Source: Sphaerodactylus townsendi (lineage: Eukaryota). From it: 64,000 nucleotides of DNA. Made by a program: the position numbers and the translations under genes. The notes beneath the pieces were generated by a model. That model searched no databases and had not been told where the DNA came from. It worked only from the letters and a program-made list of their open reading frames with translations. Positions 4,133-59,910 of this stretch are shown piece after piece (position 1 is the first letter of the stretch; the number at the start of each line of letters is the position of its first letter). The stretch lies in the NCBI RefSeq assembly GCF_021028975.2, contig NC_059426.1:159216001-159280000 (forward strand). Direction: 5' to 3'.

Positions 4133-4339
4133 TATTGTCGAAGGCTTTCACAGCCAGAATCACTAGGATGTTGTGGGTTTTCTGGGTTGTATGGCCGTGT
4201 TCCAGTATCATTTTCTCCAGATGTTTCACCTGCATCTTCAGAGGATCCTCTAAAGATGCCAGCCACAGATGCAGGTGAAACATCAGGAGAAAATGATACT
4301 TGAACATGACAATACAACATGGAAAACCCACCACACCCT
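4133..4339. mobile_element. Penelope-derived fold-back element (degenerate)
   Basis: TATTGTCGAAGGCTTTCAC tail, inverted arms around GAGGATCCTC, near-perfect 13-bp TSD TATGA(A/T)AGCAGTT at 4120-4132 and 4340-4352. Confidence 0.8.
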
Positions 4340-4936
4340 TATGATAGCAGTTATTGCTTGATAACAACAACAGAGAGAACGGGTAGAATGAGCCAGAACA
4401 CTGGACAGAACAAGTGAGGGACAGAAGCCTCAAGATGAGCATGGATCAGGGGAAAAGCTTGTCCAACACAAATGTGCGTGGGGGGGGGGGGGATGCAGTG
4501 AAGGATATTCTTAGAAATTAAGGTCTTAGTTGGAAAAGTAAGGATAAAAATATTATTCATTTTCATTTAAAAGGATCTGTATGAAAACCACATTCTTCAA
4601 CAAGTTAATAACACACAAAAATGTGCACACTTGACTCTCTGTAAGGAAGACTACAAGCAGCATACATAATTAATAAACAAAGTGACCCATGGAGGTGGGG
4701 AGACGGCTGGAAAACAGCAGTGCGGCAACCAGGACTGAAATTTTAAGCCTGCTCGTTCAGGAACACGTTCTATCAGTAACACAACCTACACAACAGTCAA
4801 CATGAATGCAGGGTCTAAGTTTGTGTCATGCCCAATCATTTCCACTGTTACTTTGGCAGTACTTTCCACAGGCAATTTATAGCACTACACATTACTGGAC
4901 TGTAATTTTGTAAAAAAATAAATTAATATGTAAATA

Positions 4937-5239
4937 TTGTCTAAGGCTTTCACAGCCGGATTCAACTGGTTATGGTGGGTTTTCTAGGCTGTGTGGCCGT
5001 GGTCTGGTGGATTTTGTTCATAACGTTTCGCCTGCACCGGTGGCTGGCATCTTCAGAGGTGTATCACAGAGAAAAGTCTGTTTCACACTGTGTCTTTCCC
5101 TTCTCACTTAGACACAGTGTGAAACAGACTTCCCTCTGTGATACACCTCTAAAGATGCTAGCCACCGATGCAGGCGAAACGTTAGGAACAAAATCCACCA
5201 GACCACGGCCACACAGCCCGGAAAACCCACCAGAACCAG
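4937..5239. mobile_element. Penelope-derived fold-back element
   Basis: About 130-bp inverted arms with a 14-nt loop. 12-bp TSD AATATGTAAATA at 4925-4936 and 5240-5251. Confidence 0.85.
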
Positions 5240-5764
5240 AATATGTAAATAATTATTTTTTTTTGGGGGGGGGGGGATGCAATTTCCCAATTTTTGACAT
5301 GCGAGCCCAAAAGAGAAGCTGCAAGAGTACGGAAGCCCTAGACTCGAGTATCACCTTCCCTCCACCATCACCTTCATACAGTGAGACCAGATCGCGGCAG
5401 AAGCGCCAGCAGCAGCAGCAGAGCAACATGAGGGGCGTAACCTGGATTAACAGACACGTGTTATGATCGTGTGAATAGGGTGGAACGGGGGAAAGGAAAC
5501 AGAGGGGCGAGGCAGCCCGTTGACACCGAGCACGGCCCCCCGAAGGCGCCGGGCCTCTGGCTCTCCTCCGTCCAGGCAGACTGTAATGGCCCCCCGCAAC
5601 AGATGGAGAGGAGAAGGGAGGGGACAGGGCTCAGGCCCGGACCAGTGCCCCTCCCCTTCTGAGGGGAGGCGTGCGCGTGAGGAAAACGGAAGGAGCCCCT
5701 CCCCCATTTACCTTTCAACGACGACAAGGCGGGCCCTCCCCGCCCCAAATACAGTTCCTCTCAC

Positions 5765-5900
5765 CGGACGGCCCTGCCCGGGATGGGGGGAGGGGAAGGG
5801 GGAGAGGCAGTGGCGGCGGCGGCGGCGGCAGCGAAGTCAACCCCAACCCCGCCGCGCACGCTCCCTGCTTGGCCCCAACCACTCCTCTTGTCAGTCTGCG
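5765..5900 (-). other. SETD3: Probable non-coding first exon of the divergent gene (SETD3 by synteny)
   Basis: Minus-strand donor CCG|GTGAGA at 5764 (alternative AAG|GTAAAT at 5711) and a (GCC)6 tract at 5812-5829. The gene name is inferred only from the recalled vertebrate order SETD3-CCNK-CCDC85C. No SETD3 coding sequence was seen. The start is approximate. Confidence 0.45.
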
Positions 5901-6439
5901 CTTCCGACGCGGCCATTGGATGCCACCCCTTCTCTCGCACTCGGGCGGCCGACCAATCCCAGTCGCCGTCGCCACCTCCTCAGTCTTTCCCACCTATGGC
6001 CAAACAGGGAGAGAGGCGGAGGAAAGCAAACACACCCGAAGAGAGAGTGTAGATGCGTATGAGACTTCTGATTGGTCGAAACCACCGCTCTACCTGTCCA
6101 CCCTCTCCCACCCTCTCCGACGATTCTCTTTGCTGATTGGCTGAGGTGAACCACCCAGCGGACGGTTTGTTCATTCGGGGACGCCCTATTCTGAGGAGGG
6201 ACAGTTTCCAGATCAAAGCAAACGTAGGCCCACCCTATTTCCATTCCTCCTCCCTCATTGGGCCCAGAAGGGGTGGGGCTTAGCCGTTCGAGGCTTGGCT
6301 TGTGATTCGTCAGATCAGTTGGGATTTCTCAACGCGCGCGTGAGTCTGTGATCTCGCGGGGCCCGCGCACCACAGGCCCGCGCCTCCTTTTCCTTTCGTG
6401 CGTCGACGTGATGACGTTGACAAACGGTTTTCAACCTCG

Positions 6440-6532
6440 GCTCTCCCAAGATGGCGCCGCGCAGGAGGTGTCGCTGACGGGTTTACCAGGGACTCTGGCG
6501 CCGGTGTTGCTTTTGTGAGTGTCCCGGGAGAG
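6440..6532 (+). other. CCNK: CCNK exon 1 (5'UTR), start approximate
   Basis: Right edge of the CpG island, YY1 motif, strong donor GAG|GTAAGG at 6533 (alternative GTGAGT at 6515). Confidence 0.7.
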
Positions 6533-6679
6533 GTAAGGAATCGAAGAAATGGATGACCGGCCTTTCGTTGCCCAGTGAGCTCCTGAGTGTGTGTGTGTGT
6601 TGGGGGGGGGGGGCAGGCTTTGACGGGAGCTAGCGGCGACGGCAAAGACGGTTGAAGAGAAAGTCCTCTTTGTTTAAAG

Positions 6680-6795
6680 CAGAGGTGTCCAACTCTGGCG
6701 CTTCGGATGTTCGTGGACTACAATTTCCATGCCAGCAGGGGCTGATAGGAATTGTAGTCCATGAATATCTGGAATGCCAGAGTTGGACACCCCTG
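6680..6795. mobile_element. Palindromic hAT (Charlie-like) MITE
   Basis: TIRs CAGAGGTGTCCAACTCTGGC / GCCAGAGTTGGACACCCCTG, 8-bp TSD GTTTAAAG. Confidence 0.9.
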
Positions 6796-7149
6796 GTTTA
6801 AAGCTTTGTGTCAGTGGGTTACCGTTGTTTATTATTATTATTGCTTACTTACTTATTCGACTTAATAAACCGCTCTCCCCCAAAGGACTCAGTTGGAAGG
6901 TTTACCTTCCGTTCATTACCCAGTTTTTCCTTTTTCGCCTCCGCTGTATGATATTTTAGATTACATTCTCCAGGGGCCAAAACTCGTTGTACCCCTATTG
7001 ACACATGTAATATGTAACCTATTGACACATACTGTGGCTCTCGAGATGGTTTACTGTAGTAATAATTGACACTGAAGGAGGGAGGCTCGATTCAGGAAAG
7101 CCCTTCCTGCTGGATGCTGGTAGCAACAAAAGAAAACAGGCTAATTTGA

Positions 7150-7239
7150 CAGCTCAACTGTGCAGAATAGCAAAATCCACTTGCAAACAATTGTGAAAGT
7201 GGATGGAAAGTGCATTATTCTGCATGTGCGGAAGGGGCC
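7150..7239. mobile_element. PIF/Harbinger-like MITE fragment
   Basis: Matches the right half of the element at 52021-52161. Confidence 0.6.
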
Positions 7240-7613
7240 TAAAAGTGAGTGGATAACTGGCTGGTTACTGGTGACTAAATAGCAACGCAGCCTTTGAAGA
7301 CCAGCCAATTTGGTTTTGGTAGAGTCTTTCGGTGAGCTGATAGTTCAGATGCCCAGTGTATGATGGGCTCATGGGCTCATTGTTGAATGTTTTGGTCTGG
7401 TGTAGCGGATTCTGAAGTGTCTGGTCTTATGTGCCTCTTTGCATTCTGTTCAGCATTCATTGAAGTGTGTTTTTTGGTGATGGGAAGGAATCTTTTTTTT
7501 TTATTTGCAGACTGTGTTCTAGTATATCTGGGTTATTCTCCAGTATGTAAAAGCTTCTGCCTTGTCTGTGGTTGGCCCGTTCACCGTTGTTGCTGTTTTA
7601 CTTGCATGTATCC

Positions 7614-7935: not shown

Positions 7936-8205
7936 TGTCCTTTATTAGCAAGTTTGCTAATAATCAAGTTTATCAAGGGAAATAAATGATCTTGTGCTGT
8001 AACCAACTGGGAGCTTGAGAAGTCTACTTTCCCTAGTTCCTCCCTGCTTGAAACTGACTTGCAGCTTCTCTCCACTGTCGTTGGATAATCCTGCTACAGA
8101 TGCATCAACCTTTATTTGCTGTAACTGGAAATGATCACAAGGAGCACCATCATGCGGAAGCTCTGGCATTTGTTATGAAATTTGCTGTCAGAGCAAACAA
8201 TGATT

Positions 8206-8427
8206 GTATTGTCGAAGGCTTTCACGGCCGGAATCACCGCTTTGCATTTCTAGCCGTTAGTTCTAGCAGCATTCTCTCCTGACGTTTCGCCTGCATCTGT
8301 GGCTGGCATCTTCAGAGGAAGATGCCAGCCACATCTCCTCTGAAGATGCCAGCCACAGATGCAGGCGAAACGTCAGGAGAGAATGCTGCTAGAACACGGC
8401 CATACAGCCCGGAAACCGCACAGCACC
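8206..8427. mobile_element. Penelope-derived fold-back element with hammerhead core
   Basis: 12-bp TSD CAAACAATGATT (8194-8205, 8428-8439), inverted arms, CTGAAGA...GAAACGTC. Confidence 0.85.
8334..8380 (+). ncRNA. Minimal type I hammerhead ribozyme motif (Penelope-type)
   Basis: TCTCCT-CTGAAGA-T-GCC(13 nt)GGC-GAAA-CGTC-AGGAGA. Conserved core boxes, stem I TCTCCT/AGGAGA, stem II GCC/GGC, palindromic ACGT as minimal stem III, GUC cleavage triplet at 8372-8374. Activity not shown. Confidence 0.6.
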
Positions 8428-8512
8428 CAAACAATGATTAATTTTAACCTCTAGAAAATAATAACAGATATTGTGTGTGTGAAGAATGTTAAGGTAGCTT
8501 TTCACAAACTCT

Positions 8513-18241: not shown

Positions 18242-18769
18242 GTACTTGAAGCACTGGCGACTCAAACATTTTTATCTGAATTGTTTGCTTCACTTGTGTA
18301 GTTTATGCCCTTGCTATACAAGCCAATTTGTGCAAATCCAGAATGTGGCATTTAAACATGCTGATACTTTTTCAGCCCTTGTGTATTGTTCCATGCGGCT
18401 TGTTACCTCCAGAAAGTTTTTATGTAAGATATACAATTTTGTTGTATCTGTCCTGCACATATGGAAAGCTTTCATGTGCTTTAAAGGGGTCTGCCCTCAA
18501 AAATGTTACTTACTTCATTTACAGTACTGATTCAGAAAATATGCATTGCACACCATGTGCTGGATGAATATATATTTTTACTTTTATCATTAAGTGGAAC
18601 AGCATATAGTTTCTCTGAGTTCTCTCAGCCCCACCTTCTTCACAAGATGTCTGTTGTGGGGAGAGGAAGGGAAAGGAGTGTGTAAGCCCCTTTGAGTCTC
18701 CTTAAAGGAGAGAAAGGGGGGTATAAATCCAGACTCTTTGTTTCCCCTCATAAAACAGGACCCAATTGT

Positions 18770-18985
18770 ATTGTCGAAGGCTTTCACGGCCGGAATCACT
18801 TGGGTGCTGTGTGGTTTCCGGGCTGTATGGCCGTGTTCTAGCAGCATTCTCTCCTGACGTTTCGCCTGCATCTGTGGCTGGCATCCTCTGATCCTCTGAA
18901 GATGCCAGCCACAGATGCAGGCGAAACGTCAGGAGAGAATGCTGCTAGAACACGGCCATACAGCCCGGAAACCACACAGCACCCA
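18770..18985. mobile_element. Penelope-derived fold-back element with hammerhead core
   Basis: Perfect 13-bp TSD AGGACCCAATTGT (18757-18769, 18986-18998). Hammerhead core TCCT-CTGAAGA...GAAACGTC-AGGA at 18892-18934. Confidence 0.9.
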
Positions 18986-19084
18986 AGGACCCAATTGTTT
19001 TAGAGGACTTTCCATGTGGAGTAGACTTGGTAGAGAAGCTGTAAAACAGACTGCAGGCAGCATGTTGTCTGAAATTTCCTTGGC

Positions 19085-24581: not shown

Positions 24582-25201
24582 AACATAAGCCGCCCCTGAC
24601 AACTGCAGTTTCTATGGGAGGTGATCAGGCTACCACAGTCGATTCTGTAGAGATGACCAAAGTCCCGATTGCACCTCCGTCTCATCCAGCTCCTGTGCAT
24701 CAACCGCCACCTCTGCCTCATCGTCCGCCGCCGCCGCCCCCACCATCCAGTTACATAACTGGCATGTCCACAACCAACTCATACATGTCAGGGGAGGGAT
24801 ATCAGAGTCTTCAGTCAATGATGAAGACGGAAGCTCCCACCTACGGAGCTATGCCACCAAACTACGGACCTCCGGCTCACTTACCGTATCACCCTCATGT
24901 GTACCCTCCCAACCCTCCTCCGCCTGTTCCTCCTCCTCCACCCACAGCATTCCCCCCACCCTCTATTCCTCCTACTCCTGGCTATCCTCCTCCACCTACC
25001 TACAATCCTAACTTCCCACCCCCTCGATTGCCTCCCTCTCATGCTGTCCCACCACACCCACCTCCAGGACTAGGGATGCCACCGGCAAGCTATCCCCCTC
25101 CCACAGTGCCCCCTGGTGGACAACCTCCAGTACCACCTCCAATACCACCCCCTGGCATGCCCCCTGTAGCAGGACTTGGGCGGGCTAGTTGGATGAGATA
25201 G
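24582..25201 (+). CDS. CCNK: Cyclin K exon 11 (proline-rich C-terminus, stop)
   Basis: HKPPL...[18 protein letters not shown]...[18 protein letters not shown]. The joined CDS is 1755 nt, an open frame of 584 aa. Confidence 0.97.
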
Positions 25202-25852: not shown

Positions 25853-27149
25853 GCTGGTTCTGTAATCGGCAGTAGTGGAGGAAATGATGAATTTTAAATG
25901 TCTTAGCGTACATCAACAAGGTAATTTCCACAAGATCATGTGGAAACGTCCAGTTTGTTGAATATGAACTCTTAACCAAATTAAAGCTGGATTAAGGGAA
26001 TCCAAGGAAGTAGCTGTTGCGAGTTTTCCAGGCTGTGTGCCCATGGTCTGATAGAAGCATTAACACTTTAAAAAGTAACTAGTCACTGGATGGGGTGCCA
26101 TGTATCTGAAAACACTTAAGGGAATTAGTCACCTGTTAGCTAAAATATGTAATTTATCCTAAGGTTAGCCTCCATGTTGGAGAGCTGGTAAGTTACCAAT
26201 GTAGCACCAATTACATACATATATGCCTGTGTAATGGACCCCAAGGACACTGCAGTACTATATACTCATTTTCTCTGGGCGAAATAATGGGAAGTATTAA
26301 TATTATAAATGGCCCTCAGGGAAATCCCACCATGCTTTCATTCCACTGTATGGGAATTGCTTATTCTCAATAAACTTGGGTCATTGTTTTTAAAAAATCC
26401 TGATTTTCAGGATGGTTATTATTTGGGCAACATGTGCTCTCTGCTGCAATATTTTATTACTCATGGAAGCTTACAGGAAGCTTTATTAATAAAACAAATT
26501 CTAAAAAGGCAATTTAAAACTAGCATCAAGCTCAAGTCCAGAGCAACAGCAGGCTACTAAAATACTGTGCTGATCAGACCAGTAGCCTGAGCAGTAGATA
26601 CCAATAAAAATTAATAAGCTTTCTGAAATCTCTTATCCAGATGTTGGAATGGACTAAATGAGCATCTGGTGGGAGGCCACTCGACAGTCTGGGGGCACAT
26701 TTACTCCATAGCCTCTGTTTCATGGGCCCACTTGTAAAGGTACACAAAGCAAAAGGCCACAGTGGAAGACTTAAGGACCACAATTGGGCATGTCCTTCGG
26801 GATTCTGGTTACAGTTTTTAAAGGTCATCACCAGCACTTTTAATTTGTACTCAGCAACCAAAAGGCAGCTAATGGAGCACACAGAAAATGTGGCCCTGTT
26901 AGGAATATTACTGCTGTGCAGTTCTTACACACTTTTCAGAGGTCACCCCATACTAGAGATCAGTCATCCAATCTGATGTAAGATGTGTTAACAATGGCCA
27001 GATTGGATCTCCCCAGAAGCAATCTGATGCATCAGCTGCAGCAGTAAACTTGGAAAAAAATCTTTTCTGACCCCCTCTAGAAAACGTTCAGAAGCAGAGC
27101 TGAATTCAGGAGATTAGAGAAGCCCCTGGTAAAAGTAATAACAATTACA

Positions 27150-27395
27150 GTGTTGTGGGTTTTCCAGGTTGTATGGCCATGTTCCAGTAGCATTTTCTCC
27201 TGATGTTTCGCCTGCATCTGTGGCTGCCATCTTCAGAGGCTGCTACACATGAAGCCCACTGGGTGACCTCGGGCTAGTCACAGTTCTCTCAGCCTCACCT
27301 ACCTCCTAAGGTGTCTGTTGTGTGGAGGGGAAGGGAAGGCAATTGTGAGCCACTTTGTGTGGAGAAAAGCTGGGTATAAATCCAAATCCTTCTAT
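27150..27395. mobile_element. Penelope half-arm abutting a SINE 3' half
   Basis: 27150-27239 matches one arm of the fold-back family. It is followed directly by a SINE body and tail. Confidence 0.65.
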
Positions 27396-28372
27396 AAGCA
27401 TCCCCCGGTTCCCAGTCACTGCAAAACAAATACCTTCCACGCATTTTTCCTACGCCCTGAATTGTTTAATGTACACGTGTCAAACTTACACATGAAATGC
27501 AGAGTCCCTCTTCTGTGCAGGTGTTCTTGGTCTGCCATCAGATTGTTAGCAATCGTGCCAACAGTCAGGAGCAGAGAACTGGATTCAGCCCTCCTTGCAA
27601 AATGAATGATTGGCACTACTGCTGTTAAGCTGCCTGGGGCTTCACGTCCTTAGAACCAAACTGCATGACAATTTTTAACAAGCTGGCCCTGAGTTTTCCA
27701 GACCCTGCTGGCTCTCCCCAGAGCCACGCAGCAACTGCAGGGAGCTGCTTTTTAAAGAACCATGGCAGCGTTCAAAATGAGGCAAAAGAACTCTCCCCGC
27801 CCCTGGGACTTCAGTTTGGGACGACGGTGCTGGGTGGAAGCCTGGAGTCCCTCCCGCCACGCCACACTCCCAAGCCAAATTGGAGCCTTGCAGTCCTTTA
27901 AAAAACAGTTTCTCACATCTGTGGTGGGGAAAGTCTGTTGCATCTGGGAAATGCAGGTCCAACTAACTTTTTAAAAAAGCATAGTTCAGTCCTTACTCCT
28001 GCATTGGACTTTTAAACTCAGAGAAACAAATGTACATTACATATCTGCTTCTTCATGCAGCCAAGCACATATAAGTTTCCTTCCTTGGTTATAATAATCC
28101 CCATTGAACTGAATTGAGGGAGCAGGACAAGACTTGATGTGGAACCAGCAGCATGGCTTCTTCAAAGGGGAGCATTGCTTTACTAACCTTTTAACCTTCT
28201 GTCAAGGAGTCTTAAACACCATTTGCTGGGGGCAATCTGGCAGACTTCATAGGGTTTGATTTTCACAAAGCATTTTCCAAATGCTCTGTTACGACCTGTG
28301 AACTTAACTTCATATATTTTAATGCTGTATCAAAAATCCACAAGCATCACAGCTCAGTTACAAAGAATGTAC

Positions 28373-35207: not shown

Positions 35208-35523
35208 ATAGAATCAGAGAGATAGAAGAGACCCCCAAGGGCCATCAAGTCCAACCCCCTGCAATGCAGGAATACACAATCAAACCACTCCTGACAGATG
35301 GCCATCCAGCCTCTCTTTAAAAACCTCCAAAGAAGGAGACTCCACCACACCCCAAGGCAGTGCATTCCACTGTCAAACAGCCCTTACTGTCAGGTAGTTT
35401 TTCCTGATGTTTAGGTGGAATCTCTTTTCCTTCACCTTGAACCCATGACTCCTGGTCCTAGTCTCTGGAGCAGCAGAAAACAAGCTTGCTCCCTCACCAA
35501 CATGACATCCCTTCAAATATCTA
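35208..35523 (-). mobile_element. CR1 LINE 3' end
   Basis: YLKGCHVGEGASLFSAAPETRTRSHGFKV... plus TTCTA-type tail. Same subfamily as 62225-62697. Confidence 0.85.
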
Positions 35524-36695: not shown

Positions 36696-38461
36696 CCCTA
36701 GAGTGTTCTGGAATAAAGTAGGATTCAATTAGACTCCTGGGGGTGGGGACCAGTTTAACCAGACCTCCTCTTCTGTAGGGGCTTCTAGTCACATTGATGT
36801 TGGCTTTCAGTATGTAGTGTACAGATGATGGCTCAGGGTTGAAACTCGAGCCTTGAAAATCAACCTTTCCTCAAAGGCTCCATTCAAAAAATTAAGCCCA
36901 AGGTGTGACCTCCTCCTTGCATTGGGCCAGCCACAATTTAGGAGAAACCCAAGCCAGATAAAGCATTTACACCCCAACTTTCCCTTTGGCTTAGGCTTGA
37001 AGCCGGCCTCAGGGCCAATGAAGTGACGGGGATTGTAAACCGCTTTGAGGTTTCCTTAGAGAAAAGCGGGGTACAAAAACCAAATTTTCCCTTCTTTTTC
37101 TACCTCCTCTGCCAGCAAGTTCCACATTTTAATCACCCTCTGGGCAAAGAAGTAAAAGCACGCCATGTGCTTCCCTCTTCTAATCCCCACTTTGTGCCAG
37201 TACAACGAATACTGAATAGCAGGGAGGTTTCATTAGGAATGGCAGCATGCCAGAGCCCAACTTGACGGGCACTTTAAACAGACCTGAGCTCCAGGAAGCA
37301 GCCCAGTTTGCAAAGACTGAGGAAAACTCTGTTCTGCAGGTCTCATTTCCAAGACCACAAACAAGGAAGTATCCACAATGTCCTTGAGAAAACTGTTTCA
37401 CTGTAAAATACCTGGCTCCTTCCAGGCTGTGCAAACAACTTTTGTTTTTGTTTTAAAGAAACTGAGCGACCAAGGTGTGGTCTTCGATTTCTACCTGCAA
37501 GGTGGCCATTTTGAAAGACAGCAAGATTTGGTTGTCGCACAAAAATCCACATCCTGCAGGGGGATTAAACGCAGCGATCGCAACACAGGACTTGCTGCCG
37601 GGCTGACATAAAACCACCTGGGTTTCAGGGGAATGTTCTACTGTGGGTTTTTAGCATACGTTTTTCCGTGTGTTCTGGTCTTTATGAGATGAGAAACATC
37701 GTACCTCTTCTGTCTCGTCAGAGGGCCTTCTGTTTATGACTAACTTCCCTACAGCATCCCACAAACCCACAAAGTTCACAAATTACATGGCTCAGTGGTG
37801 TCTCACTCGTCCTTTTTAACTAGACAGGCAGTAGGGTCTAAACCACAAATTCTACTAGGGTGGCTGTAAGTGCTACATAACGATGCCACTGGACTTCTCT
37901 GAAGACGGCCAGGATTCTCCATGTCAACGGTACAGGCCTTGAGCAGTTAAAAACGAGAAACACCTTCTTACGACAGCTGCGTGATAAAGTATGGACACGC
38001 TCAAAATGGACGTCATGAGATGTGATTCTAAATAAACATAGAATCAGGCTGCAACTGTGCATCGCAAGGCAGGCTTTTGACCTCCTTAAAAAAATAACTA
38101 GACACTTGTGCCACAGAGAATGCCATTAGTCAGTTTCAAAAGTAGTTTATGTGTAAGTCACTGGATCACCCATCTGCTTAGTGTGTATATACCAAGCTTG
38201 CAATGGCCGGGTCTGGGTCTGGGAAATCTGAGCTTCTCCCATTAGCCTTTTTAAATGGAGAAAGCTTATCCATGTGCGTATTCCTTTGCATAACGTAACT
38301 AGCTTCCTTCACTGAAATGGCTGGGGGAATGGTCCATTGGATACTTACCGTGAAAGGCCTTTCTACTGGTAGGCTAGGAGGACATCTTGTGTGGAGAAGA
38401 CACCCCACACAAGGTGCCCTCCGCCTCCATGTGCCTTTCCTTTTAAGGAATTGGTGTTTAA

Positions 38462-38680
38462 CTGGTTGTTGTGGGTTTTCCGGGCTGTGTGGCCGTGGTC
38501 TGGTAGATCTAGTTCCCAACGTTTCGCCTGCATCCGTGGCTGGCACCTTCAGAGGTGTATCACAGAGGGAAGTCTATTACACGTTAGGAACGTTAGGAAC
38601 AAGATCTACCAGACCACGGCTACACAACCCCGAAAACCACCACAACCAGTTGAATCCAGCCGTGAAAGCCTTCGACAACA
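38462..38680. mobile_element. Penelope-derived fold-back element (tail on right)
   Basis: Perfect 13-bp TSD AATTGGTGTTTAA (38449-38461, 38681-38693). Confidence 0.85.
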
Positions 38681-38985
38681 AATTGGTGTTTAAGCCACAT
38701 TTTCTCTAGAATGGAGCGGAATGTGTGGCACGTCCCCACTGGAAGAGGCTGGATATTGTTGCAATCTCAGCTGTTCACCAAAGTACAATTCCCAAGATTC
38801 TTTGGGAGAAGCTACGTAAGCCACCCCTGATTTAAGCTTTCCAGGTCAATATAACTTCCAATATCTTCTGTATCCTGGCATTCTGGGAGTGTTAAAATTA
38901 AGTTCTCCGCTCCTTACCCACAAGCAACAATTACTAGTCCTCACAGTTATTCCATCGCCTTGTCAATCAATCTTGGGGGAGCTTA

Positions 38986-39926: not shown

Positions 39927-40850
39927 TAGCTGGTATAAACTGCAAACAACAAAGTCCTTGGTCCAAAGACTGACTCTACCATGAACTCACTAATGGGGCC
40001 ACATGCAAGCTAACCTTTCTCAACCTCTAACTGGCAGTGAGGGTATAATAATACTGACCTACCCACCTTGCAGGGTTGTTGTAAAGATTACAGCCTGACA
40101 ATGGCTTGGATCTAGTGGTGTGCAAGTGGAAACATAAACAGATAGTGGCGGCAGCTATTTGTATTCTCTGCAGAAGTTCAATAACGCAACACAATCTGTT
40201 GGATGCTTTCTTAAGAGGTATTCTAATACTTTTCAATTTTCAATTACGCTTTTAAAATGTCTGTATTAACAGGATAATTGCATATTCAAATGACAACAGT
40301 TGGGCATTTTGAATTGTACCAATCGTACCTTTGCCTCTCATTTCCAGATGGCGGGGACAAACGACAGTGAATTGTTTTCAGAACCATTGCCCTGCTTCTC
40401 AAGGACATCTGATCAGCCAGCACTGGAAAGAGAATGCTGTACTAGATAGATTTTTGGTCTCATCTAGTACAAACGTCCTTACGCCTAACCAGTGTCCTTT
40501 GTGCAAAACAGGGGAAGAAATAAAACCTGGCCACTCACAGAAAAAGTAAAAGGGTCTCGACGTTCATGACCTTGTAATTTAACCAAAAAAGAAAATGGCT
40601 TAGTGAGGACAGAATATATTTTAGAAGCAGAAAACGTTGAGAGTCAGTTACAGGGAAAAGTGGAAGGGAATAAAGAAAAGGGAGAGGCTTTACGTTGCCA
40701 AAATCCTGGTGGGGCGTGGAGATCTGTCAGAATAAAACTGATCTCCAATCTACACAGATCAGCGACTCTGGAAAAAATGGATGCTTTGGAGAGTTGGGTC
40801 TATGGCATTTTGTACCCCAAATGTCTCTCCTCTTCCCAAACCACCCCCTT

Positions 40851-41658
40851 TAAGAACATAAGAACTTAAGAACTAGCCTGCTGGATCAGACCAGAGTCCA
40901 TCTAGTCCAGCTCTCTGCTACTCGCAGTGGCCCACCAGGTGCCTTTGGGAGCTCACATGCAGGATGTGAACGCAATGGCCTTCTGCTGCTGCTGCTGTTC
41001 CTGAGCACCTGGTCTGCTAAGGCCTTTGCAATCTCAGATCAAAGAGAATCAAGATTGGTAGCCATAGATTGACTTCTCCTCCATAAATCTGTCCAAGCCC
41101 CTTTTAAAGCTATCCAGGTTAGTGGCCATCACCACCTCCTGTGGCAGCATATTCCAAACACCAATCACACATTGTGTGAAGAAGTATTTCCTTTTATTAG
41201 TCCTAATTCTTCCCCCCAGCATTTTCAATGGATGCCCCCTGGTTCTAGTATTGGGAGAAAGAGAGAAAAATTTCTCTCTGTCAACATTTTCTACCCCATG
41301 CATAATTTTATAGACTTCAATCATATCCCTCCTCAGACGCCTCCTCTCCAAACTAAAGAGTCCCAAACGCTGCAGCCTCTCCTCATAGGGAAGGTGCTCC
41401 AGTCCCTCAATCATCCTTGTTGCCCTTCTCTGCACTTTTTCTATCTCCTCAATATCCTTTTTGAGATGTGGTGACCAGAACTGAACACAGTGCTCCAAGT
41501 GCGGTCGCACCACGGCTTTATATAAGGGCATGACAATCCTTGCAGTTTTATTATCAATTCCTTTCCTAATCATCCCCAGCATAGAGTTTGCCTTTTTCAC
41601 AGCTGCCGTGCATTGAGTTGACATTCCCATGGAACTATGAACTAAGACGCCCAAATCC
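40851..41658 (-). mobile_element. Young 5'-truncated CR1 LINE, inserted in an older hAT-like element (about 40690-41722)
   Basis: Uninterrupted 203-aa ORF2 C-terminus (DLGVLV...RPHLEHCVQFWSPH...), (TTCTTATG)n tail. Flanks read GTTGCCAA...TTGGCAAG. Confidence 0.9.
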
Positions 41659-43216
41659 AAAACCTTTCCCGGGTTTCACTCCAATGTCTCCGGGAATTTC
41701 CCAACCCAACGTTGGCAAGTCTAGACTAACATGGCTACCTATCTGAAATTATGAATCAGAAATCAATAGTCTTTCACAGCTTTATTATTGTTATTGTTAC
41801 GTTGTTGAGGAGGAGGAGGAGGAGGAAAGTGCATTTCCAGGCCCTGAAAGCATCCTTAATAATGTTTAAAACGTAGAGAGGGCAATCTCGGGAGCTAAGT
41901 GAGAACAGAACAAGTATATTAAGTGGCCAGGGCTCTCTGTGCCCATTGCTAGCAAAAGCACAACAATTTATCATTCGGATTATAGAAGCTGGGTTCTCCT
42001 GAGGCAATTTTGGGTTAATTATGCAGTGGATTTTGATTCTCTTGGAGCAGGAACACAATGTCCTCAGCAGTGCTAGATACTTTACAGGGTTCCGTTTCGC
42101 CTTTCACTGAAGTATTGCAGATTGACCACTTAGAAACAGGACACCCGAACGGGATTGACGTCTCTTCGCCCTGCTTTGTGCTAAACGTTCCGGTTACACA
42201 AAATAGGTCACTTTCTTCAGGCCCTCAACCTACTTTGAAAGCGGCACTTTGCTGATATATATTGGGACCACTCTGCCCAAAGAATGGGCAGCCTGGCTTA
42301 AAATAACTCTTTCCATTTTGCTTCCCCTTCCCCTGATAAAAGGAGGGTGATGCACTGAAGAGGATATGAAAGACACCGGCTGCTGACAAAAACTAGAACT
42401 CTGATGAAAAGGAAAGAATTAATTATTGATCCAGCTGGGCTCAGAATGTGGAACTAACTCTTCTGGCCTCGGTACGCCTGCGGTACTGAACAGCCTGGAC
42501 GATCAAATCCCAGCGCGCGGCCCCAGAAACGTCATGCTGGGAGCCAAACATGGCCTGCATCCACAGGACAAATCCACAGGTCAGACTGAGGTAGCTTAAT
42601 TAACGGTCACATGTAATCCGCCCCCATCACCAGCATGAAACTTTCCACTGAACAAACTAAACGTCTCTTTCCCTACAGTAACACCTAAGTATGATTTCAG
42701 GATTTAATGACCATTTCGCAAGTTGCGCTTGGAGGGAGCTGTTTTCAATATGAAACCTACTAGGGTTTTAGTACATCAAAATGCACTGGTGCATGAGCTG
42801 CACCTGTTGGACATCTGTCTGCAACGGAGCAGGGTTTCTGCTGGGGGAAGGGAGGCATCCTAGCTGGTCATTTCTCTCTAAGCATTGCTATTTTTTGTTT
42901 TAAACCTGGGGCTGCTGTTGTGCCTTCAACAATGCAGTGATGTGCAAATAATTAAGGTGATAAAGCTTTCCCTGGCATGCAGATAAAGCCATCTGTTTAA
43001 TCCCTGCAGGTCATGCTTTTACTGAAGACAGAGGAGCCGGGCCAGAAAAAAAGTGGCAACCCTAGGAAAGACAGAGATGTCCAGCGAATGTTGCTATCTT
43101 TCTTCCTGACCCGGTCTCTCCGCCCTTTTAGAAAATACCCCTTTCATCCTCAACACATTTTAACAACCCTCTGTGTTTGCCTTCTTCGTATTAAAAACAG
43201 AACCCTGTACCTAGAA

Positions 43217-43904: not shown

Positions 43905-44326
43905 AGAATTTTTTCTCTCTTTCTCACAATACTAGAACCAGGGGGCATTCATTGAAAATGCGGGGGGGAAGAATTAGGACTAATAAAAGGAAACACTTCT
44001 TCACGCAACGTTTGATTGGTGTTTGGAATATGCTGCCATAGGAGGTGGTGATGGCCACTAACCTGGATAGCTTTAAAAGGGCCTTGGACAGATTTATGGA
44101 GGAGAAGTCGATTTATGGCTACCAATCTTGATCCTCTTTGATCTGAGATTGCAAATGCCTTAACAGACCAGGTGATCGGGAGCAACAGCCGCAGACGGCC
44201 ACTGCGTTCACATCCTACATGTGAGCTCCCAAAGGCACCTGGTGGGCCACTGCGAGTAGCAGAGAGCTGGACTAGATGGACTTTGGTCTGATCCAGCTGG
44301 CTTGTTCTTATGTTCTTATGTTCTTA
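43905..44326 (+). mobile_element. CR1 3' end inserted inside a minus-strand SINE (43728-44442)
   Basis: Near-identical to the reverse complement of 40851-41280. SINE halves continue on both sides. Confidence 0.85.
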
Positions 44327-44609: not shown

Positions 44610-44888
<279 letters not shown>

Positions 44889-45732: not shown

Positions 45733-46564
45733 CAGAAGAACCACCATGCACGTTGGTGGGATGGAGGAACAAGAGGAACACATTGACCCCAGAGCAGAGA
45801 GTGCAGAAGAGGAAGGAGGAGTTATTTCACACCCCTGGTTCTTTTTCACTCCCGCCACTCCAAGCCCCATCCTGCTCCTGCAGGTCTGGAATTGGTTATT
45901 CTGGGGGATAAACAGGGCTGCAGTGACAGGTAGGACTGCTTGGAACCACCATGTTATGTCCACCACGGACTCTGATTATGGCTGCAACTTATCCAGACAT
46001 TTAATGTGCCTGAACATGCGGCAGCAGCTAGTCTATAAAAAGTATGAACAGTAAGGTTGTTTGTATAAGTCAATGTTCTATTAAATGTTCTTAATCTGAA
46101 AACAAATACATAAAATAATGGTCAGTTCCATCCCATTTGCTAATATACACCACTTCACGCTGCAGTGTACAGCAGGCTATTACAGAGTAAATTAATATAC
46201 CAAATTGTAGATGGGAAAAAATCTTTAGCAATAAGTAATGAGCGGAGAAGCGGTCCTTGGTATGAGAATAAGTGCCAAAGAGTATAAAAGCATCACTGTT
46301 TTTATCTATGAAATGCTGGTGTTTGTGCACATGTATACAGATAGAGATCCACTGATCCCCCTCACAAACAGTTCAAGGCGCTTCTGCTAAACACATTATA
46401 AACAGGAATGACCACTATGTAGGTCATTACCGACCCATGGTTCATTGATGCCATGTTTACTGTTATAAAATACTGATGTTGTTATTATATTGTTGTACAC
46501 CGCCCTGAGCCTTTCTGGGGAAGGTGGTATATAAATCAAATATACATATACAAATACAAACTTG

Positions 46565-46802
46565 GGTGCTGTGTGGTTTCCGGGCTGTATGGCTGTGTTC
46601 TAGAAGCATTCTCTCCTGACGTTTTGCCTGCATCTGTGGCTGGCATCTTCACAGATGCCTGCATCTTTACAGATGCCTGCATCGCGAAACCACAGATGCA
46701 GGCGAAAAGTCAGGAGAGAATGCTGCTAGAACACGGCCATACAGCCCAGAAACCACACAGAACCCAAGTGATTCCGGCCATGAAAGCCTTCGACAATACA
46801 TT
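46565..46802. mobile_element. Penelope-derived fold-back element (tail on right)
   Basis: 13-bp TSD AAATACAAACTTG (46552-46564, 46803-46815), rearranged centre. Confidence 0.85.
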
Positions 46803-47856
46803 AAATACAAACTTGCCTCATCCAAGTCGTTTCTCTTCCTAAAGGGCTCCCTGCCACATCTCTGATTCCAATCCTCTCCCCCCACCCCGAAGTAGGTTTT
46901 TTCACTTTAAAAAAATATAAATGACCATTACGTACTGCGTGCAATGTATGATTTGGTGCTCAGTGGAATGCAATATTTGTTCAGAAACACCAAAAGAATT
47001 TCCAACCTTGGAAACCCATTTAATCTTTGAAATGGCTCTTGGCAGTTCATTTTACTAGGAAGGTGCATACTCTCTGAGATAAAAGGGTGGGGCAGGAGAA
47101 TAATTGGCATCCACTTCACTGGTTTCATGGCAACTTTCTTTAAAGAGCCCTCTTCAACGAAGGTTGTGAGGGCAACCAGAGAAATAAGCACATACACAAA
47201 ACGGCAGCCAGGGAGGGCTCACTTCCAAAATATGTTATCTGATTCTCTCACATCTGGCATCTTATTGAGGAAAAGAAAAAAAAGAAACTCGCCGCTTTCA
47301 TAGCAAGAAACTCAAGTAGCCGAAGAGTCTGATGCGCACCTTTGATACGGCCTATCCTTCTTAAGGTCTCTCTGAAACAAGATGAGATACAATGTCCCTA
47401 TTCAAAGAGATGCCCTACCTGTCTTCATGATTTGCACTGAACTATTTAGAAAAACTCACAATGGGTCCATTGAAAAATCGCAAAATTTTGCCTTGATGGA
47501 AAGAACAAAGCAGGATTATCCTTTTCTGCTGTAAGGGTACACTGGGGATGACAGAGTGGTATGTGCATCTTTTCAGCAAAAGACTGGGGTTTTTTCCCCT
47601 AGCTTTTTCCCCTAGTACAAAACAGCTTCCTTGTAAAATCTCTGAATTGTGTCGAGAATGGCCGAGGCTGCTGCTTGGAATTCATTACTCGTGTCTCCTA
47701 GTCAGCTTTCTCACTCAGTTCGCCAACTACGACAGGATGATAATGAAGAACCTGGTTACATCTCATACCGTGTTCTACCATATCTCAGGAGTGTGAGACG
47801 CTTCAACTAACCGTAGTCAGCCTGGAAGAGTCATTCTTAATCAATAGCTTGGACAT

Positions 47857-49668: not shown

Positions 49669-49814
49669 NNNNNNNNNNNNNNNNNNNNNNNNNNNNNNNN
49701 NNNNNNNNNNNNNNNNNNNNNNNNNNNNNNNNNNNNNNNNNNNNNNNNNNNNNNNNNNNNNNNNNNNNNNNNNNNNNNNNNNNNNNNNNNNNNNNNNNNN
49801 NNNNNNNNNNNNNN
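49669..49814. other. Assembly gap (N run)
   Basis: 146 N. Confidence 1.
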
Positions 49815-54817: not shown

Positions 54818-54928
54818 TGGTACATTATTTGGAAACCATTACAGCCAGCAGTTGTTTTAACGTGCAATAAATGCATAATCTGGTTGGTTGGATCCAGACT
54901 AAATTTTCTGATGGCAGAATGCAACCTT

Positions 54929-55332
54929 TAAGAACATAAGAACATAAGAACTAGCCTGCTGGATCAGACCAGAGTCCATCTAGTCCAGCACTCTGCTACT
55001 CGCAGTGGCCCACCAGGTGCCTTTGAGACTCCATTTTGAGGAGGTGAAAACAATGGCCTGCTGCTATATACTCCCTGGTACCTAACTAAAGGCATTTGCA
55101 ATCTGAGATCAAAAGGAGGATTGGTGGTATACATAGATCGACTTCTCCATAAATCTGTCCAAGCCCTTTTTAAAGTTATCCAGGTTAGTGGCCATCACCA
55201 CCTCCTGAGACAGCATATTCCAAACACCAATCACATGTTGTGAGAAGAAGTGTTTCCTTTTATTAGTCCTAATTCCCCCCCACCCCACCCCAGCATTTTC
55301 AATGAATGCTCCCTAGTTCTAGTATTGTGAGA
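54929..55332 (-). mobile_element. CR1 3' end, inverted relative to its neighbour
   Basis: (TAAGAACA)n tail and CR1 3'UTR, same subfamily as the neighbour. Confidence 0.85.
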
Positions 55333-56086: not shown

Positions 56087-56819
56087 AACCATTAGTATAG
56101 GCCCCATTCAGATGCATTCACTGGTGCTATATAAACAGTCGGTTTAGATAACAGCACAGCAAATGCCAGTATGTGTGACCTGACCAGCCAAGTGCCACAA
56201 TAATATTTTTAAAAGAGGCCGGGGACAATGGTTCACTCACTTGTTGTACTACATTAAGCACCAGTGCACGGCCTCCCAAAGCATCCAATACCACACAACT
56301 TTTCTATATCTACCATTGCCACACGATCCTGCCAACAAAAATTATAAATTTAGGAGTAGGTTAATGGGTCTGAAGAAAGAAAATGGGGAAAAATGTTTTA
56401 AAAATAAATGGACAACACGCAGGCTCATTGTCCCATAATAGGTATTTCAGAACACTTTTCCTGAAGTTCCAGTTTTAATTAAAAAGAAAACAGATCCCTT
56501 TTATTTCCAGAGATATAAGAAAAAACGCCCACTTCTCAGTGCTTGGTTTTACTTATTGATTAATGCTTAGTTTTATTGTTTTTTACATTATTATGATGTT
56601 TAATTTCAATAACATGTATGAGATTTTGCGGTGTCACGATGACTTGTATCCCCAAACATGATACATGTGTTACCATAAGATTTTGGTCTGGAATAGTGCA
56701 ATTTTTAAAAGTACAACTCTTTGAACGGAATATGTTTATAAAATATTTTAAATGAATGTTTATATAATTGATTCAGTTTGACTAGAACTTCATTTAGAGG
56801 ATTATATGACATTTTAGAC

Positions 56820-56929
56820 CAGGGGTCTGCAACCTGCGGCTCTCCAGATGTTCATGGACTACAATTCCCACTAGCTGATGGGATTTGTAGTCCATGAACA
56901 TCTGGAGAGCCGCAGGTTGCAGACCCCTG
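56820..56929. mobile_element. Palindromic hAT MITE
   Basis: TIR CAGGGGTCTGCAACCTGCGG, TSD (T/A)TTTAGAC. Confidence 0.88.
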
Positions 56930-57177
56930 ATTTAGACAATTTATGTGAAAATTTAGAAGGGCAGACTCTTGGGTGATCGAGATGAAAAAATAAGGATCTG
57001 AAGCTTTGAATGAGGGGAACACTTACTGAGGAACCCCCTGCCACTGAAAATGTATCAAAACTTGTTCCTTCTTTGTTTTTTGTTATTGTCTTGTGGCTTG
57101 TCTATGTTAGAGGTCCTTAATGTGGTGCCCGTGGCTACCGTGGTACCCATGGACACTTTTCATGGCACCCACCAAAT

Positions 57178-57449
57178 GCCAGAGTGGTGTAGTGGTTAAG
57201 AGAGCTGGACTTGAAACTGGAGAACCAGATTTGATTCCCACTCCTCCACATGAGTGGCAGACTTTAATCTGGTGAACTGGGTTTGATTCCCCACTGCTGC
57301 ATGTGAAGCCTACTGGGTTACCTTGGACCAGTCACAGTTCTTTCAGAACTCTCTCACCCCTGCCCACCTAACAAGGAAAGGTGATTTTAAGCCACTTTGA
57401 TAATCCTTTTGGTAGAGGAAAGCAGGGTATAAAACCAACTCCTCTTCTT
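57178..57449 (+). mobile_element. tRNA-derived squamate SINE
   Basis: Head, body and tail as in the other copies. Confidence 0.8.
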
Positions 57450-58639
57450 TAGAAAGTTGACGAAGCTAAGTGGGGCTTTTGCCTAGGCCTCACAATACGA
57501 CTAACTAGTCAGTAACTGTTTTATCTGTGTGGCTGCACTGAAAGTTTAAATCTGCTTTTATGTTATTGTTCCACTGTTTTAATATGAACTGTATTTCAAA
57601 TTAATATCATTTGCAGTGAAAGCAAACTGTTGTGAAAACTGTTTTGAGGCTTTGTCTGAAGACAGAAAAGTAAATAAAAATGTCCTAGAATCTCAAAGAC
57701 CAATATATCATGAAAATTGCCAGAGACAAAGTAAAAAAAGCAGCCTTTATAGTGATTACTTCAACCTTTTGAATTCATGCTTGACTCACACATCACATCA
57801 GTAAAGAAAGGATTTAAAAAAACAAACCCCCAAACATCTCCTTAGCTCAATCGGCAGGATGATTCATTCAGAAATGTGAGGAGAAATCACACCATTTAGT
57901 TTTAACACACTGTCATCACCATTTGGTGAGAAGTATTTTGGTGAGAACATGCTGAAAAATACACTTTCTTCCTCTGGATCAGGATAAGCAGGAGCGTCGC
58001 TGTCTTTTGGAAGGAAAATGTTGCCCAGCTGGGGAAGATACTGAACTGTGAGTAAAAAGAAATGCACAAAAGCCACAACATCACACGGAAAATCCTGCTT
58101 CCTTGCAAGCACACAAGACGTGAAAATGAAGATGGAGAAACTTGGCATAATGATTTCCCTTCCACTCAACTATAGCTGTCTATATTGAAAAGCTCTTTCA
58201 ATATTTGGAAAAGGATTACGGGAAGGCCTAGTCATGAAGGGATTTATATGACTAAAATTTAATGCCTCAGCTGGCAGAAGACCCCCTCCCTCCTAGCCCA
58301 GCTGTCTCCCCTTCCTCCAAGAAAGAAAGGAGGAACAGGAATACCCTCAAACGTATGTGGCCAGACCCCAAGAGAAATGCTGTGGTTTTCAAGGTCCCAT
58401 TCCTTCCTGAGAAATGAAATGGGCAAGGAGCCACATGAATATATGATGGGAACTTCAGAGGATAAATGTCTAATCCTTAAACAGGGCTGGCCCTGCCATC
58501 AGGCAGAGTGAGCCAACCAGTCCCAGGCTGCGGCTCTGGGCATTGTACTGCACTGTCAATCATTGAATTCATCATTATATTTTGCATCATAAACGGTGGT
58601 GGATTTTCTGCCTCAGGCACCAAAGGATCTCGAGCTGTC

Positions 58640-59320
58640 TCTGTCGACAAACTTGTCACTCAGGAAATAAGATCAGAAGGTATTTGAAGAGTATTTTGTA
58701 TGGAGGGGAGCTGTACGTAGGGAAGAATGTAGTGGCTAAGGTATTGGGTATCAGTGTGGGAAATGTGGATTCAGATGGATCCAGTAGGAGCAATGAAGAA
58801 GCATGACCTTTATCTACATGCAAATGGACATCATCAGCAAAAGCCAGCAAGGCTGTCTGTGCCCCACAATCCCGCCTGAAACCAGACTGAAAAGGGTCCA
58901 GAGCCCTTGAGTTATATGAGAAGAACTAGAATTGATCTTGGCCATAATAATTTTTCTGCAGGGATAGGTGGGTTTTTTTTAAGCAGTGAACCATCTCTTT
59001 GAGTGGCTGGGGGAAAATACCATGGGTTAGTGACTGATTTGTGATAGACATCAAGACCTGGTTCATGTGATGTTTACATGGTATTAGAAGCCAGGGTAAA
59101 CAAAGATCCAGTGCACAAGGGATATCCTTGTCCATAGGGATATCCATAGAGATATCCATGTCCATCTCAGCAACAGGTCAAAATGGCCCATGAGAAGCCC
59201 AGATGGAGTATTTGGCATTTCATCCACATGGCTTATTTTACAGGTGACAATGTCCTGATGTAGTTTATCAGCATAAAACTTTGCAGAGGTATCACAGCTA
59301 ATTATCTCTTCTGGAGACAT
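58640..59320 (-). mobile_element. Old L2-type LINE RT fragment
   Basis: CALDLCLPWLL...ITNQSLTHGIFPQPLKE and SLLLLLDPS are degenerate L2 RT motifs. Confidence 0.6.
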
Positions 59321-59325
59321 TAAAG

Positions 59326-59463
59326 CAGGGGTCTTCAAACTATGGCCCTCCAGATGTTCATAGACTACAATTCCCATGAGCCCTACCACTTGGCCATGCT
59401 GGCAGGGGCTGATGGGAATTGTAGTCCATGAACATCTGGAGGGCCATAGTTTGAAGACCCCTG
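59326..59463. mobile_element. Palindromic hAT MITE
   Basis: TIR CAGGGGTCTTCAAACTATGG, TSD CATTAAAG. Confidence 0.9.
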
Positions 59464-59534
59464 CATTAAAGGCTTGAATGTAAGGCTCAAAGGACGTTGA
59501 CAGCTGGACTGCCCTGTCGCGAATAGCCCAAGCT

Positions 59535-59690
59535 AGCCTGAGCTCATCAGATCTCAGTCGCTAAGAAAGGTTGGCCCTTTTTAGTGGTTGGACGGGAGAC
59601 CGCCAAGGAAGTCCAGGATCACAGGCAATGGCAAACGACTTCTGGAAGTCTCGTGCCCTGAAAATCCCCCAGTATTGCCATAAATCAGCT
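59535..59690 (+). mobile_element. 5S rRNA-derived SINE
   Basis: GCCTGAGCTCATCAGATCTCAGTCGCTAAG...GGACGGGAGACCGCC resembles 5S rRNA boxes A and C. Degenerate, not a gene. Confidence 0.65.
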
Positions 59691-59724
59691 GCGATTGATG
59701 TTTAAAAAAGAGGATATCAAGATC

Positions 59725-59910
59725 AATGTATTGTCGAAGCCTCTCACGGCCGGGATCACTGGGGTGCTGTGTGGTTTCCGGGCTACATGGCCATGTTCTA
59801 GTAGCATTCTCTCCTGACCTCTGAAGATGCCAGCCACAGATGCAGGCGAAATGTTAGGAGAGAATGCTGCTAAAACACAGCCATACAGCCCGGAAACCAC
59901 ACAGCACCCC
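59725..59910. mobile_element. Penelope-derived fold-back element
   Basis: 12-bp TSD GAT(A/G)TCAAGATC, CTGAAGA...GAAATGTT core at 59821. Confidence 0.8.

Follow-up and report, generated by a model that had tools for sequence, protein, structure and literature searches.

The seven short fold-backs found in a 64-kb window of the Sphaerodactylus townsendi genome (the whole stretch of DNA that was analysed) are probably best explained as separate dead-on-arrival insertions by a Poseidon-type Penelope-like retrotransposon, primed from both nicks in its target. All are head-to-head, measure 186-303 bp between their target-site duplications (TSDs), against an earlier estimate of about 185-300 bp, and begin exactly at the positions given in the original prediction (4133, 4937, 8206, 18770, 38462, 46565 and 59725), whose view of them as independent, extremely truncated insertions is supported. 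The half copy that had been claimed near 27150 was likewise recovered, and one further old arm fragment was added. The individual features are as follows:

4133-4339, fold-back E1, subfamily C, tail left, TSD 4120-4132 / 4340-4352 (13 bp, 1 mismatch); axis a GATC palindrome, left arm with a 13-nt deletion, right-arm core with G5A
4937-5239, fold-back E2, subfamily B, tail left, TSD 4925-4936 / 5240-5251 (12 bp); arms extending to -45, loop of 14 nt
8206-8427, fold-back E3, subfamily A, tail left, TSD 8194-8205 / 8428-8439 (12 bp); axis with a templated insert of ~15 nt, intact minimal hammerhead in both arms
8278-8318, minus strand, intact minimal type I hammerhead of the E3 left arm; C3 at 8315, predicted cut after 8281
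8337-8377, plus strand, intact minimal type I hammerhead of the E3 right arm; C3 at 8340, predicted cut after 8374
18770-18985, fold-back E4, subfamily A, tail left (18770-18800), TSD 18757-18769 / 18986-18998 (13 bp); the least diverged copy, flanked by two cyclin K coding exons
18893-18933, plus strand, intact minimal type I hammerhead of the E4 right arm; C3 at 18896, element ATG at 18902, predicted cut after 18930
26013-26063, minus strand, old degenerate arm fragment (nhmmer E=5.6e-6)
27149-27240, minus strand, half copy E5h, subfamily C; single arm without tail, joined head-to-head to a 5'-truncated SINE-like repeat (27239-~27400)
38462-38680, fold-back E6, subfamily B, tail right, TSD 38449-38461 / 38681-38693 (13 bp); tailed arm reaching inwards to +24, tail-less arm to about -36
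46565-46802, fold-back E7, subfamily A, tail right, TSD 46552-46564 / 46803-46815 (13 bp); axis of several short element-derived pieces, no complete hammerhead
59725-59910, fold-back E8, subfamily A, tail left, TSD 59713-59724 / 59911-59922 (12 bp, 1 mismatch); tailed arm ending at +27, adjoining the hammerhead cut site

From the direct repeats flanking each fold-back we infer TSDs of 12 bp (E2, E3, E8) or 13 bp (E1, E4, E6, E7), five of the seven perfect and two with one mismatch, just as had been predicted. Their scores range from 9 to 13, and none of 150 random position pairs reached 8 in the same search. These repeats are AT-rich (64/88 positions versus 56% for the window, p=0.0009). Around the half copy with its SINE no TSD was found (best score 3).

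Within a copy, the arms are 86-100% identical over their aligned parts, and the predicted extra tail of ~30 nt (measured as ~31 nt) is present on exactly one side in all seven fold-backs, on the left in five and on the right in two. Tailed arms end on the outside at +114 to +120 in raw coordinates, with E3 at ~+117 once its net loss of 13 nt is corrected, and tail-less arms at +82 to +85. The two sets of ends are tightly clustered, with a spacing of 31 nt, and ORF sequence beyond +120 is absent from every arm in the window. The inner ends lie at -9 to -12 in seven of the 11 arms of subfamilies A and C and none of these passes -12, a limit measured relative to the arm of E4 itself. Near-equal inner ends occur in E1, E2 and E3. 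In the other four copies (E4, E6, E7 and E8) neither arm is contained in the other, the outermost sequence being found in the tailed arm only and the innermost in the tail-less arm only. The further 5' reach always belongs to the tail-less arm in these four untied copies (one-sided sign test, 0.06), an asymmetry that could stem from later tip deletions. As predicted, the axis junction differs in each of the seven fold-backs, and its pieces are element-derived in E3, E4, E6 and E7.

Each arm corresponds to the ORF start (~120 nt) of a Penelope-like element of the Poseidon type, with the ATG lying within the minimal hammerhead. Compared by eye and ungapped with the template of PAc (Poseidon_Ac), a Penelope-Poseidon clade element of Anolis carolinensis (PMC11167929), the arm matches at 107 of 127 nt from -9 to +118, split into 33/38 in the hammerhead and 74/89 downstream. 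This supports the predicted origin from Penelope pLTRs and, at the level of sequence, a narrowing of the family to the Poseidon type. Common to PAc and the gecko copies are an ATG where hammerhead stem II begins, the cut site at +29, AT-rich targets and a tail lying between two internal reverse-transcription start sites. Reverse transcription by PAc begins at +111-118 and also at a second site, which delimits the tail (PMC11167929); the gecko tails end at +114 to +120, and the second site is matched as the tail boundary rather than by coordinate. PAc also cleaves AT-rich DNA on both strands and extends both, but no difference in start sites between top and bottom strand was observed (PMC11167929), and hence the rule of one tail per insertion is not predicted by that work. 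Unlike PAc, the gecko copies lack the ORF body, two opposed ORF-start stubs being the whole insertion, their sequence upstream of -9 differs and they fall into three subfamilies. The PAc description covers tandem loci and contains neither short fold-backs nor TSD length.

Inverted pLTRs with a short tail had been put forward as a known Penelope product, and the published text available bears this out, TSD included, so that the gecko stubs are a further case. Penelope of D. virilis and Pen2/Pen2a of A. vaga (PMC3846280, PMC8557442, PMC2377424) are described there with head-to-head inverted pLTRs, a tail of ~31 nt at one end, a short TSD and the first ORF codons inside the pLTR. However, those examples flank an ORF or captured DNA, whereas the gecko copies consist of the inverted pair alone, and the A. 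vaga TSDs given are 8-10 bp as compared to 12-13 bp in the gecko. Short ORF-less Penelope fold-backs in lizards were not found described in the literature consulted, which is weak evidence given that Repbase, Dfam and most subscription papers lay outside its scope. A palindromic motif in the accessible part of PMC2997562 proved unrelated to the gecko fold-backs.

In the proposed mechanism, a protein with reverse transcriptase and GIY-YIG domains would nick AT-rich DNA on both strands, with 12-13 nt between the nicks, and each 3' end would prime reverse transcription at one of two internal RNA sites (~+84 and ~+116). Both cDNAs would halt after ~90-165 nt, in most cases where the hammerhead begins on its 5' side, and their two ends would be joined via microhomology and short templated jumps, giving a hairpin with flanking TSD and one tail in which the ribozyme would be a passenger under neutral decay. 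Judging by the precise positions of the ends, the element appears to copy its RNA into either side of the DNA cut that it makes. In L1 twin priming, which yields the order TSD, inverted piece, sense piece, TSD, priming likewise occurs at both nicks, and the two pieces are adjacent, non-overlapping parts of the RNA. The gecko pieces instead show almost complete overlap, with starts offset by 31 nt. A more tentative proposal, and one rather less likely to be true than not, is that the fold-backs are fossil strong-stop products of the usual Penelope reaction, in which a dimeric enzyme would make two cuts, one per strand and spaced by 12-13 nt, and start two rounds of reverse transcription on a single RNA from sites close to the 5' end of that RNA, and that they are the main self-contained source of the dsRNA behind the heavy A-to-I editing of lizard Penelope. 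The polymerase starting at +84 would lead and the one at +116 would trail, which would account for one tail per insertion and for the tail-less arm reaching further 5'; for both, copying would cease at the 5' end of the RNA or at the hammerhead edge (~-12), where a template jump would normally carry on into the ORF. If so, tail, inverted pLTR and TSD would be explained in one step. The origin of the inverted pLTRs and one-sided tail of Penelope is called unresolved in PMC11167929 and in the available text of PMC8557442.

Other origins can be weighed against priming from both nicks. Snap-back self-priming, by which one cDNA (or antisense template) folds and is copied back into the second arm, has been proposed for head-to-head Penelope repeats with junction palindromes in the part of PMC3846280 available, and fits the GATC palindrome at the symmetric axis of E1 as well as the near-equal inner ends of E1, E2 and E3. 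It requires, however, that the copied arm lie within its template, and the non-nested arms of four of the seven copies count against it; together with the further 5' reach of the tail-less arm they favour two RNA-templated primings. Since snap-back also leaves the constant end of the second arm at +82 to +85 unexplained, it appears unlikely. Loss of the ORF from longer insertions (inverted pLTR plus pLTR-ORF-pLTR) by recombination between direct pLTRs or by deletion is quite unlikely: the published text available gives such long insertions, with a single inverted pLTR, a tail and a TSD, as the usual structure and also reports solo pLTRs, and the scar in the E3 left arm and the half copy demonstrate rearrangement at such loci, but the collapse would be needed in all seven copies, the least diverged of which (E4) is already short, and it has to contend with the absence from the window of any arm continuing past +120. 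A non-autonomous palindromic family, MITE- or retrozyme-like, spreading as a ready-made hairpin is suggested by the similar size, fold-back shape and high density (seven in 64 kb), yet it is largely refuted here and scarcely credible, given the seven axis junctions, the asymmetric ends, the 12-13 bp TSDs and the direct identity to a Penelope ORF start. MITEs and DNA transposons have symmetric TIRs and common internal sequence, neither of which is seen. Non-LTR retrozymes (10.64898/2026.07.22.740005) are likewise small, non-coding and derived from Penelope-like elements, with a type I hammerhead, but are made of head-to-tail tandem units, whereas the gecko arms are inverted, with one sense arm per strand, and give no sign of being re-copied as a unit.

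As to the ribozyme, the predicted hammerhead consensus is correct, but only nine of the 15 arms span it, and three of 15 satisfy a stringent descriptor of the minimal hammerhead, which requires the core boxes, both stems (I and II) and a palindromic 15.2-16.2 and which gave no match in 100 shuffled windows. As in the minimal type I hammerheads of metazoan Penelope-like elements (PMC4209133), there are CUGANGA and GAAA boxes without stem III, an extra nucleotide before stem II, G10.1-C11.1 and a palindromic 15.2-16.2; unlike them, the gecko motifs have a stem I of 4-6 bp and an A.A mismatch in stem II, and stand beside their own complement. The majority letters of the three subfamilies agree at all 11 core positions. 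After insertion the core was not conserved above the arm background (4/130 versus 39/863 changes, p=0.64, with low power and for window copies), and its rate of decay is about that of the remaining arm sequence. Rfam gave no match at gathering score over the whole window, hence no hammerhead; around E4, 23 matches at E<=10 all lie below gathering score, none is a hammerhead, and most are miRNA-precursor models, which were rejected as fitting the hairpin shape only.

Formation of long hairpins is supported in silico by the E4 fold of -196 kcal/mol (z=-23.9, equalled by none of 200 shuffles), and a host transcript from either strand would meet the antisense arm first, so that a long dsRNA stem should be expected. 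The original prediction had added that the fold-back could keep the ribozyme inactive inside host pre-mRNAs. Sequestration is energetically real, the hairpin being favoured over the hammerhead fold by 63-67 kcal/mol in E3 and E4, but its being a function is unsupported. The idea that fold-backs are retained for their antisense arm, as the silencer of a ribozyme able to cleave host pre-mRNA if left free, would agree with that energy, with the position of E4 within the cyclin K gene and with antisense cover of all three intact hammerheads, none of the three uncovered ones (E5h, E6 left, E8 right) being intact; in E6 and E8 most of the ribozyme is left uncovered by the opposite arm. This reading is nevertheless very unlikely. 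Half of the six covered hammerheads are broken too, as are most arms, the intact ones are simply those in the least diverged copies, the core does not stand above background and compensatory changes between arms were not seen. Moreover, cleavage by the PAc hammerhead depends on its protein (PMC11167929), and a single minimal hammerhead is inactive in published cleavage work. The modelled hairpins should form, but shielding is unnecessary as an explanation for them.

The value of such stubs is that they preserve both ends and the junction within 200-300 bp and hence serve as a genomic readout of the Penelope insertion mechanism. At the density of the window (seven per 64 kb), a gecko or anole assembly should contain copies in numbers sufficient for a direct tally of nick spacing, of the pairing of start sites, of which arm leads and of the number of templates. 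They are also a candidate simple reason for the heavy A-to-I editing of lizard Penelope. In the text available of PMC5625713, Penelope is the sole massively hyper-edited LINE-class repeat in lizard brain, with >40,000 sites versus 8,663 in all SINEs, and a palindromic consensus is invoked for frog Harbinger only.

Instead of the two subfamilies claimed earlier, three were found (A with E3, E4, E7 and E8; B with E2 and E6; C with E1 and E5h). Arms of the same subfamily A copy differ by 0-7 in 54-60 columns (0/60 in E4), similar to arms of different copies, with the scarred left arm of E3 left out of the comparison. Gene conversion between arms is unsupported, since same-copy arms are no closer than between-copy arms in this subfamily. 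Coding sequence in the arms is limited to 39 N-terminal codons; a HMMER search with this 39-aa N-terminus gave nine proteins, none a full Penelope-like ORF and none with a Pfam reverse transcriptase or GIY-YIG domain, and a word-index protein search with a 40-aa N-terminus gave no match. An exact 24-nt pattern had no match in metagenome or viral contigs. Among the 20 sequencing runs listed, four contained at least half of the element words, with no RNA run listed among those containing them. The reading frame of a contig protein, P0106, runs through a related fold-back in which each arm has a tail, a point against the proposed mechanism.

All seven fold-backs of the original prediction and its half copy were recovered at the coordinates below using BLAST, repeat finding and a search for target-site repeats (TSDs), and the nhmmer set for the window comprises these plus one older arm fragment.

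Fold-backs and related fragments in the window, with body length and inner ends of the tailed/tail-less arms (positions counted along the element, cut site +29; the left arms of E1 and E4 were read from the junction rather than by automatic walk)
4133-4339: fold-back E1, 207 bp, inner ends -12/-12
4937-5239: fold-back E2, 303 bp, inner ends -45/-45 or further
8206-8427: fold-back E3, 222 bp, inner ends -10/-10
18770-18985: fold-back E4, 216 bp, inner ends -1/-12
38462-38680: fold-back E6, 219 bp, inner ends +24/-36
46565-46802: fold-back E7, 238 bp, inner ends +8/-5
59725-59910: fold-back E8, 186 bp, inner ends +27/-9
27149-27240: half copy E5h, nhmmer
26013-26063: older arm fragment, nhmmer

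The seven bodies, 2.5% of the window, all have head-to-head arms with the antisense arm first whichever strand is read, and a tail of ~31 nt confined to one side. As predicted, each is flanked by direct repeats of 12-13 bp (five perfect, two with one mismatch; 73% AT), which score 9-13 in a search where 0/150 random pairs reached 8. Pairwise distances resolve three subfamilies (A: E3, E4, E7, E8; B: E2, E6; C: E1, E5h) instead of the two proposed, differing from each other at ~20-35% of alignment columns 77-136, and the two arms of any one copy always belong to the same subfamily. The half copy and a 5'-truncated SINE-like repeat, presumably a Sauria SINE, are joined head-to-head and share 2 nt at the join; this pair (27149-27400) is arranged like a two-template insertion, but no TSD was found around it. 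In the left arm of E3, ~33 nt are replaced at 8238-8257 by a ~20-nt filler that includes short local motifs and looks like a scar left by end-joining repair within the stem of the hairpin.

The fold-backs are real and correctly assigned to Penelope, an assignment that can be refined to the Poseidon type. The arm carries the start of a 39-codon frame whose ATG lies within the hammerhead, and for PAc, the Poseidon element of anole, the consulted parts of PMC11167929 place the ORF start at hammerhead stem II, the cut 26 nt past the start codon, and two internal start sites of reverse transcription, one at +111-118 and another that bounds the tail. An ungapped comparison by eye of E4, with its core taken from the right arm and its tail from the left one, against the printed PAc template gives 33/38 identical nt over -9..+29 and 74/89 over +30..+118. 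Counted directly, tails end between +114 and +120 (E3 at about +117 once its net 13-nt loss is counted), with 2/7 at +120 slightly outside the PAc range as given there, and tail-less outer ends lie at +82 to +85. Protein searches with the N-terminus of this frame gave no hits by word index and nine by HMMER, none with reverse transcriptase or endonuclease domains; six of the nine retain residues translated from the non-coding hammerhead box 5' of the ATG, which fits constraint at the RNA level. One of them, the anole caspase-14 isoform X3 RefSeq model XP_008116504.2 (P0109), begins with 39 residues 64% identical to the Poseidon ORF start, followed by the caspase domain, possibly an exonised pLTR donating its ATG, or a gene-model artefact; the S. 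townsendi 'caskin-1-like' model (P0104) ends C-terminally in the same peptide.

By analogy with standard target-primed reverse transcription, the order TSD, antisense arm, sense arm, TSD is what would result from cDNA priming at both 3' ends of a staggered cut, and PAc is described as cutting and extending both strands, preferring AT-rich DNA and forming a predicted dimer (PMC11167929, in part). In the four copies with untied inner ends (E4, E6, E7, E8), each arm has sequence that its partner lacks, the tailed one on the outer side and the tail-less one on the inner side, so neither can have been copied from its partner. This speaks against snap-back as modelled in PMC3846280. The direction of this asymmetry, identical in 4/4, is suggestive only, as later tip deletions could mimic it. 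Since the seven junctions all differ, the hairpin was not copied as a unit. A later collapse of longer insertions into fold-backs is a less likely alternative. Short element pieces, in either orientation, are present at the junctions of E3, E4, E6 and E7, as expected for microhomology jumps. Inner ends fall at -9 to -12 in 7/11 A/C arms and never pass -12, suggesting that the RNA has its 5' end there or that the edge of the hammerhead acts as a block, and E8L and E6R terminate a few bases from the cut site. Antisense then sense arms are read through in protein hits P0108 and P0112, hence fold-backs exist in other genomes too; P0106, from a short contig, runs through a related fold-back whose two arms are both tailed and counts against a strict one-tail rule, although short-read assembly can symmetrise a hairpin.

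The predicted hammerhead core holds in part: 9/15 arms span the motif, the other six being cut or deleted inside it, and a minimal-hammerhead descriptor derived from the consulted text of PMC4209133 matches only E3L, E3R and E4R, with none in 100 shuffled windows; the Rfam search reported no hammerhead. Between subfamilies the hammerhead is more conserved than the following 34 nt (2/38 versus 9/34, p=0.02; 2/38 versus 7/34, p=0.07; 4/38 versus 12/34, p=0.02), in comparisons that are not independent and are confounded with coding, whereas changes after insertion show no such difference (core 4/130 sites, elsewhere 39/863; p=0.64, low power), so the source elements were under constraint, of which the copies show no sign. 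The proposed role of the fold-back in keeping the ribozyme inactive is not supported. In the complete E3 and E4 hairpins the hammerhead stems are predicted at probability 0, and forming them would cost 63-67 kcal/mol; even the E4 arm folded alone forms stem I in only 1-2%. The PAc hammerhead is described as not cleaving without protein and as dispensable for insertion in vitro (PMC11167929), and a single minimal hammerhead as not cleaving (PMC4209133). Shielding by the antisense arm agrees with 3/3 intact motifs being covered and 0/3 uncovered ones intact, yet 3/6 covered motifs are broken as well and the intact ones occur in the copies with the least divergence. The ribozyme is a passenger undergoing decay. 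Intact sense hammerheads at 8337-8377 and 18893-18933, both on the cyclin K strand with ~10.5 kb between them, could in principle be dimer partners in one pre-mRNA, but each is locked by its own antisense arm.

Inverted pLTRs, a one-sided tail (30-40 nt), short TSDs and a pLTR that includes ORF codons are shared with Penelope as described in the consulted parts of PMC8557442, PMC3846280, PMC2377424 and PMC8969392, and dispersed as well as opposite-strand minimal hammerheads in truncated Penelope-like elements are reported in PMC4209133, while retrozymes, in the text consulted, form tandem units (10.64898/2026.07.22.740005) unlike the head-to-head arms here. In the mainly open-access papers searched, outside Repbase and Dfam, ORF-less fold-backs are not described as a frequent product in lizards, and supplementary figure 2 of PMC11167929, mapping genomic ends, may already show them. 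Massive hyper-editing of Penelope reported in a lizard of another species (PMC5625713) may be tied to fold-backs. The useful content of the fold-backs lies in the pairing of two start sites, the 12-13 bp stagger and the non-nested arms, which make two-end priming testable by counting.

Cyclin K coding exons run from 10087 to a stop codon near 25200 (exon at about 19.6 kb; best match an S. townsendi protein, 98% identical), placing E4 in an intron; E3 precedes the first coding exon and probably sits in intron 1. Peptide motifs of CCDC85C on the minus strand at 44774, 39114 and 34899 place E6 inside an intron, where E7 and E8 probably lie too; by synteny, E1 and E2 presumably lie inside SETD3. 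An assembly gap of 146 N occupies 49669-49814. Young LINE-like 3' fragments, assumed to be CR1-type (40847-41675, 43905-44326, 54925-55281; 35256-35523, 62210-62638), form direct and inverted pairs 87-94% alike, of which that at 41 and 44 kb, 2.6 kb apart, could be another dsRNA source. A second dispersed family of short, MITE-like repeats with inverted ends (D6, D16 and D19 of the repeat finding) occurs at 6725, 32866, 43212, 47933, 56815 and 59321.
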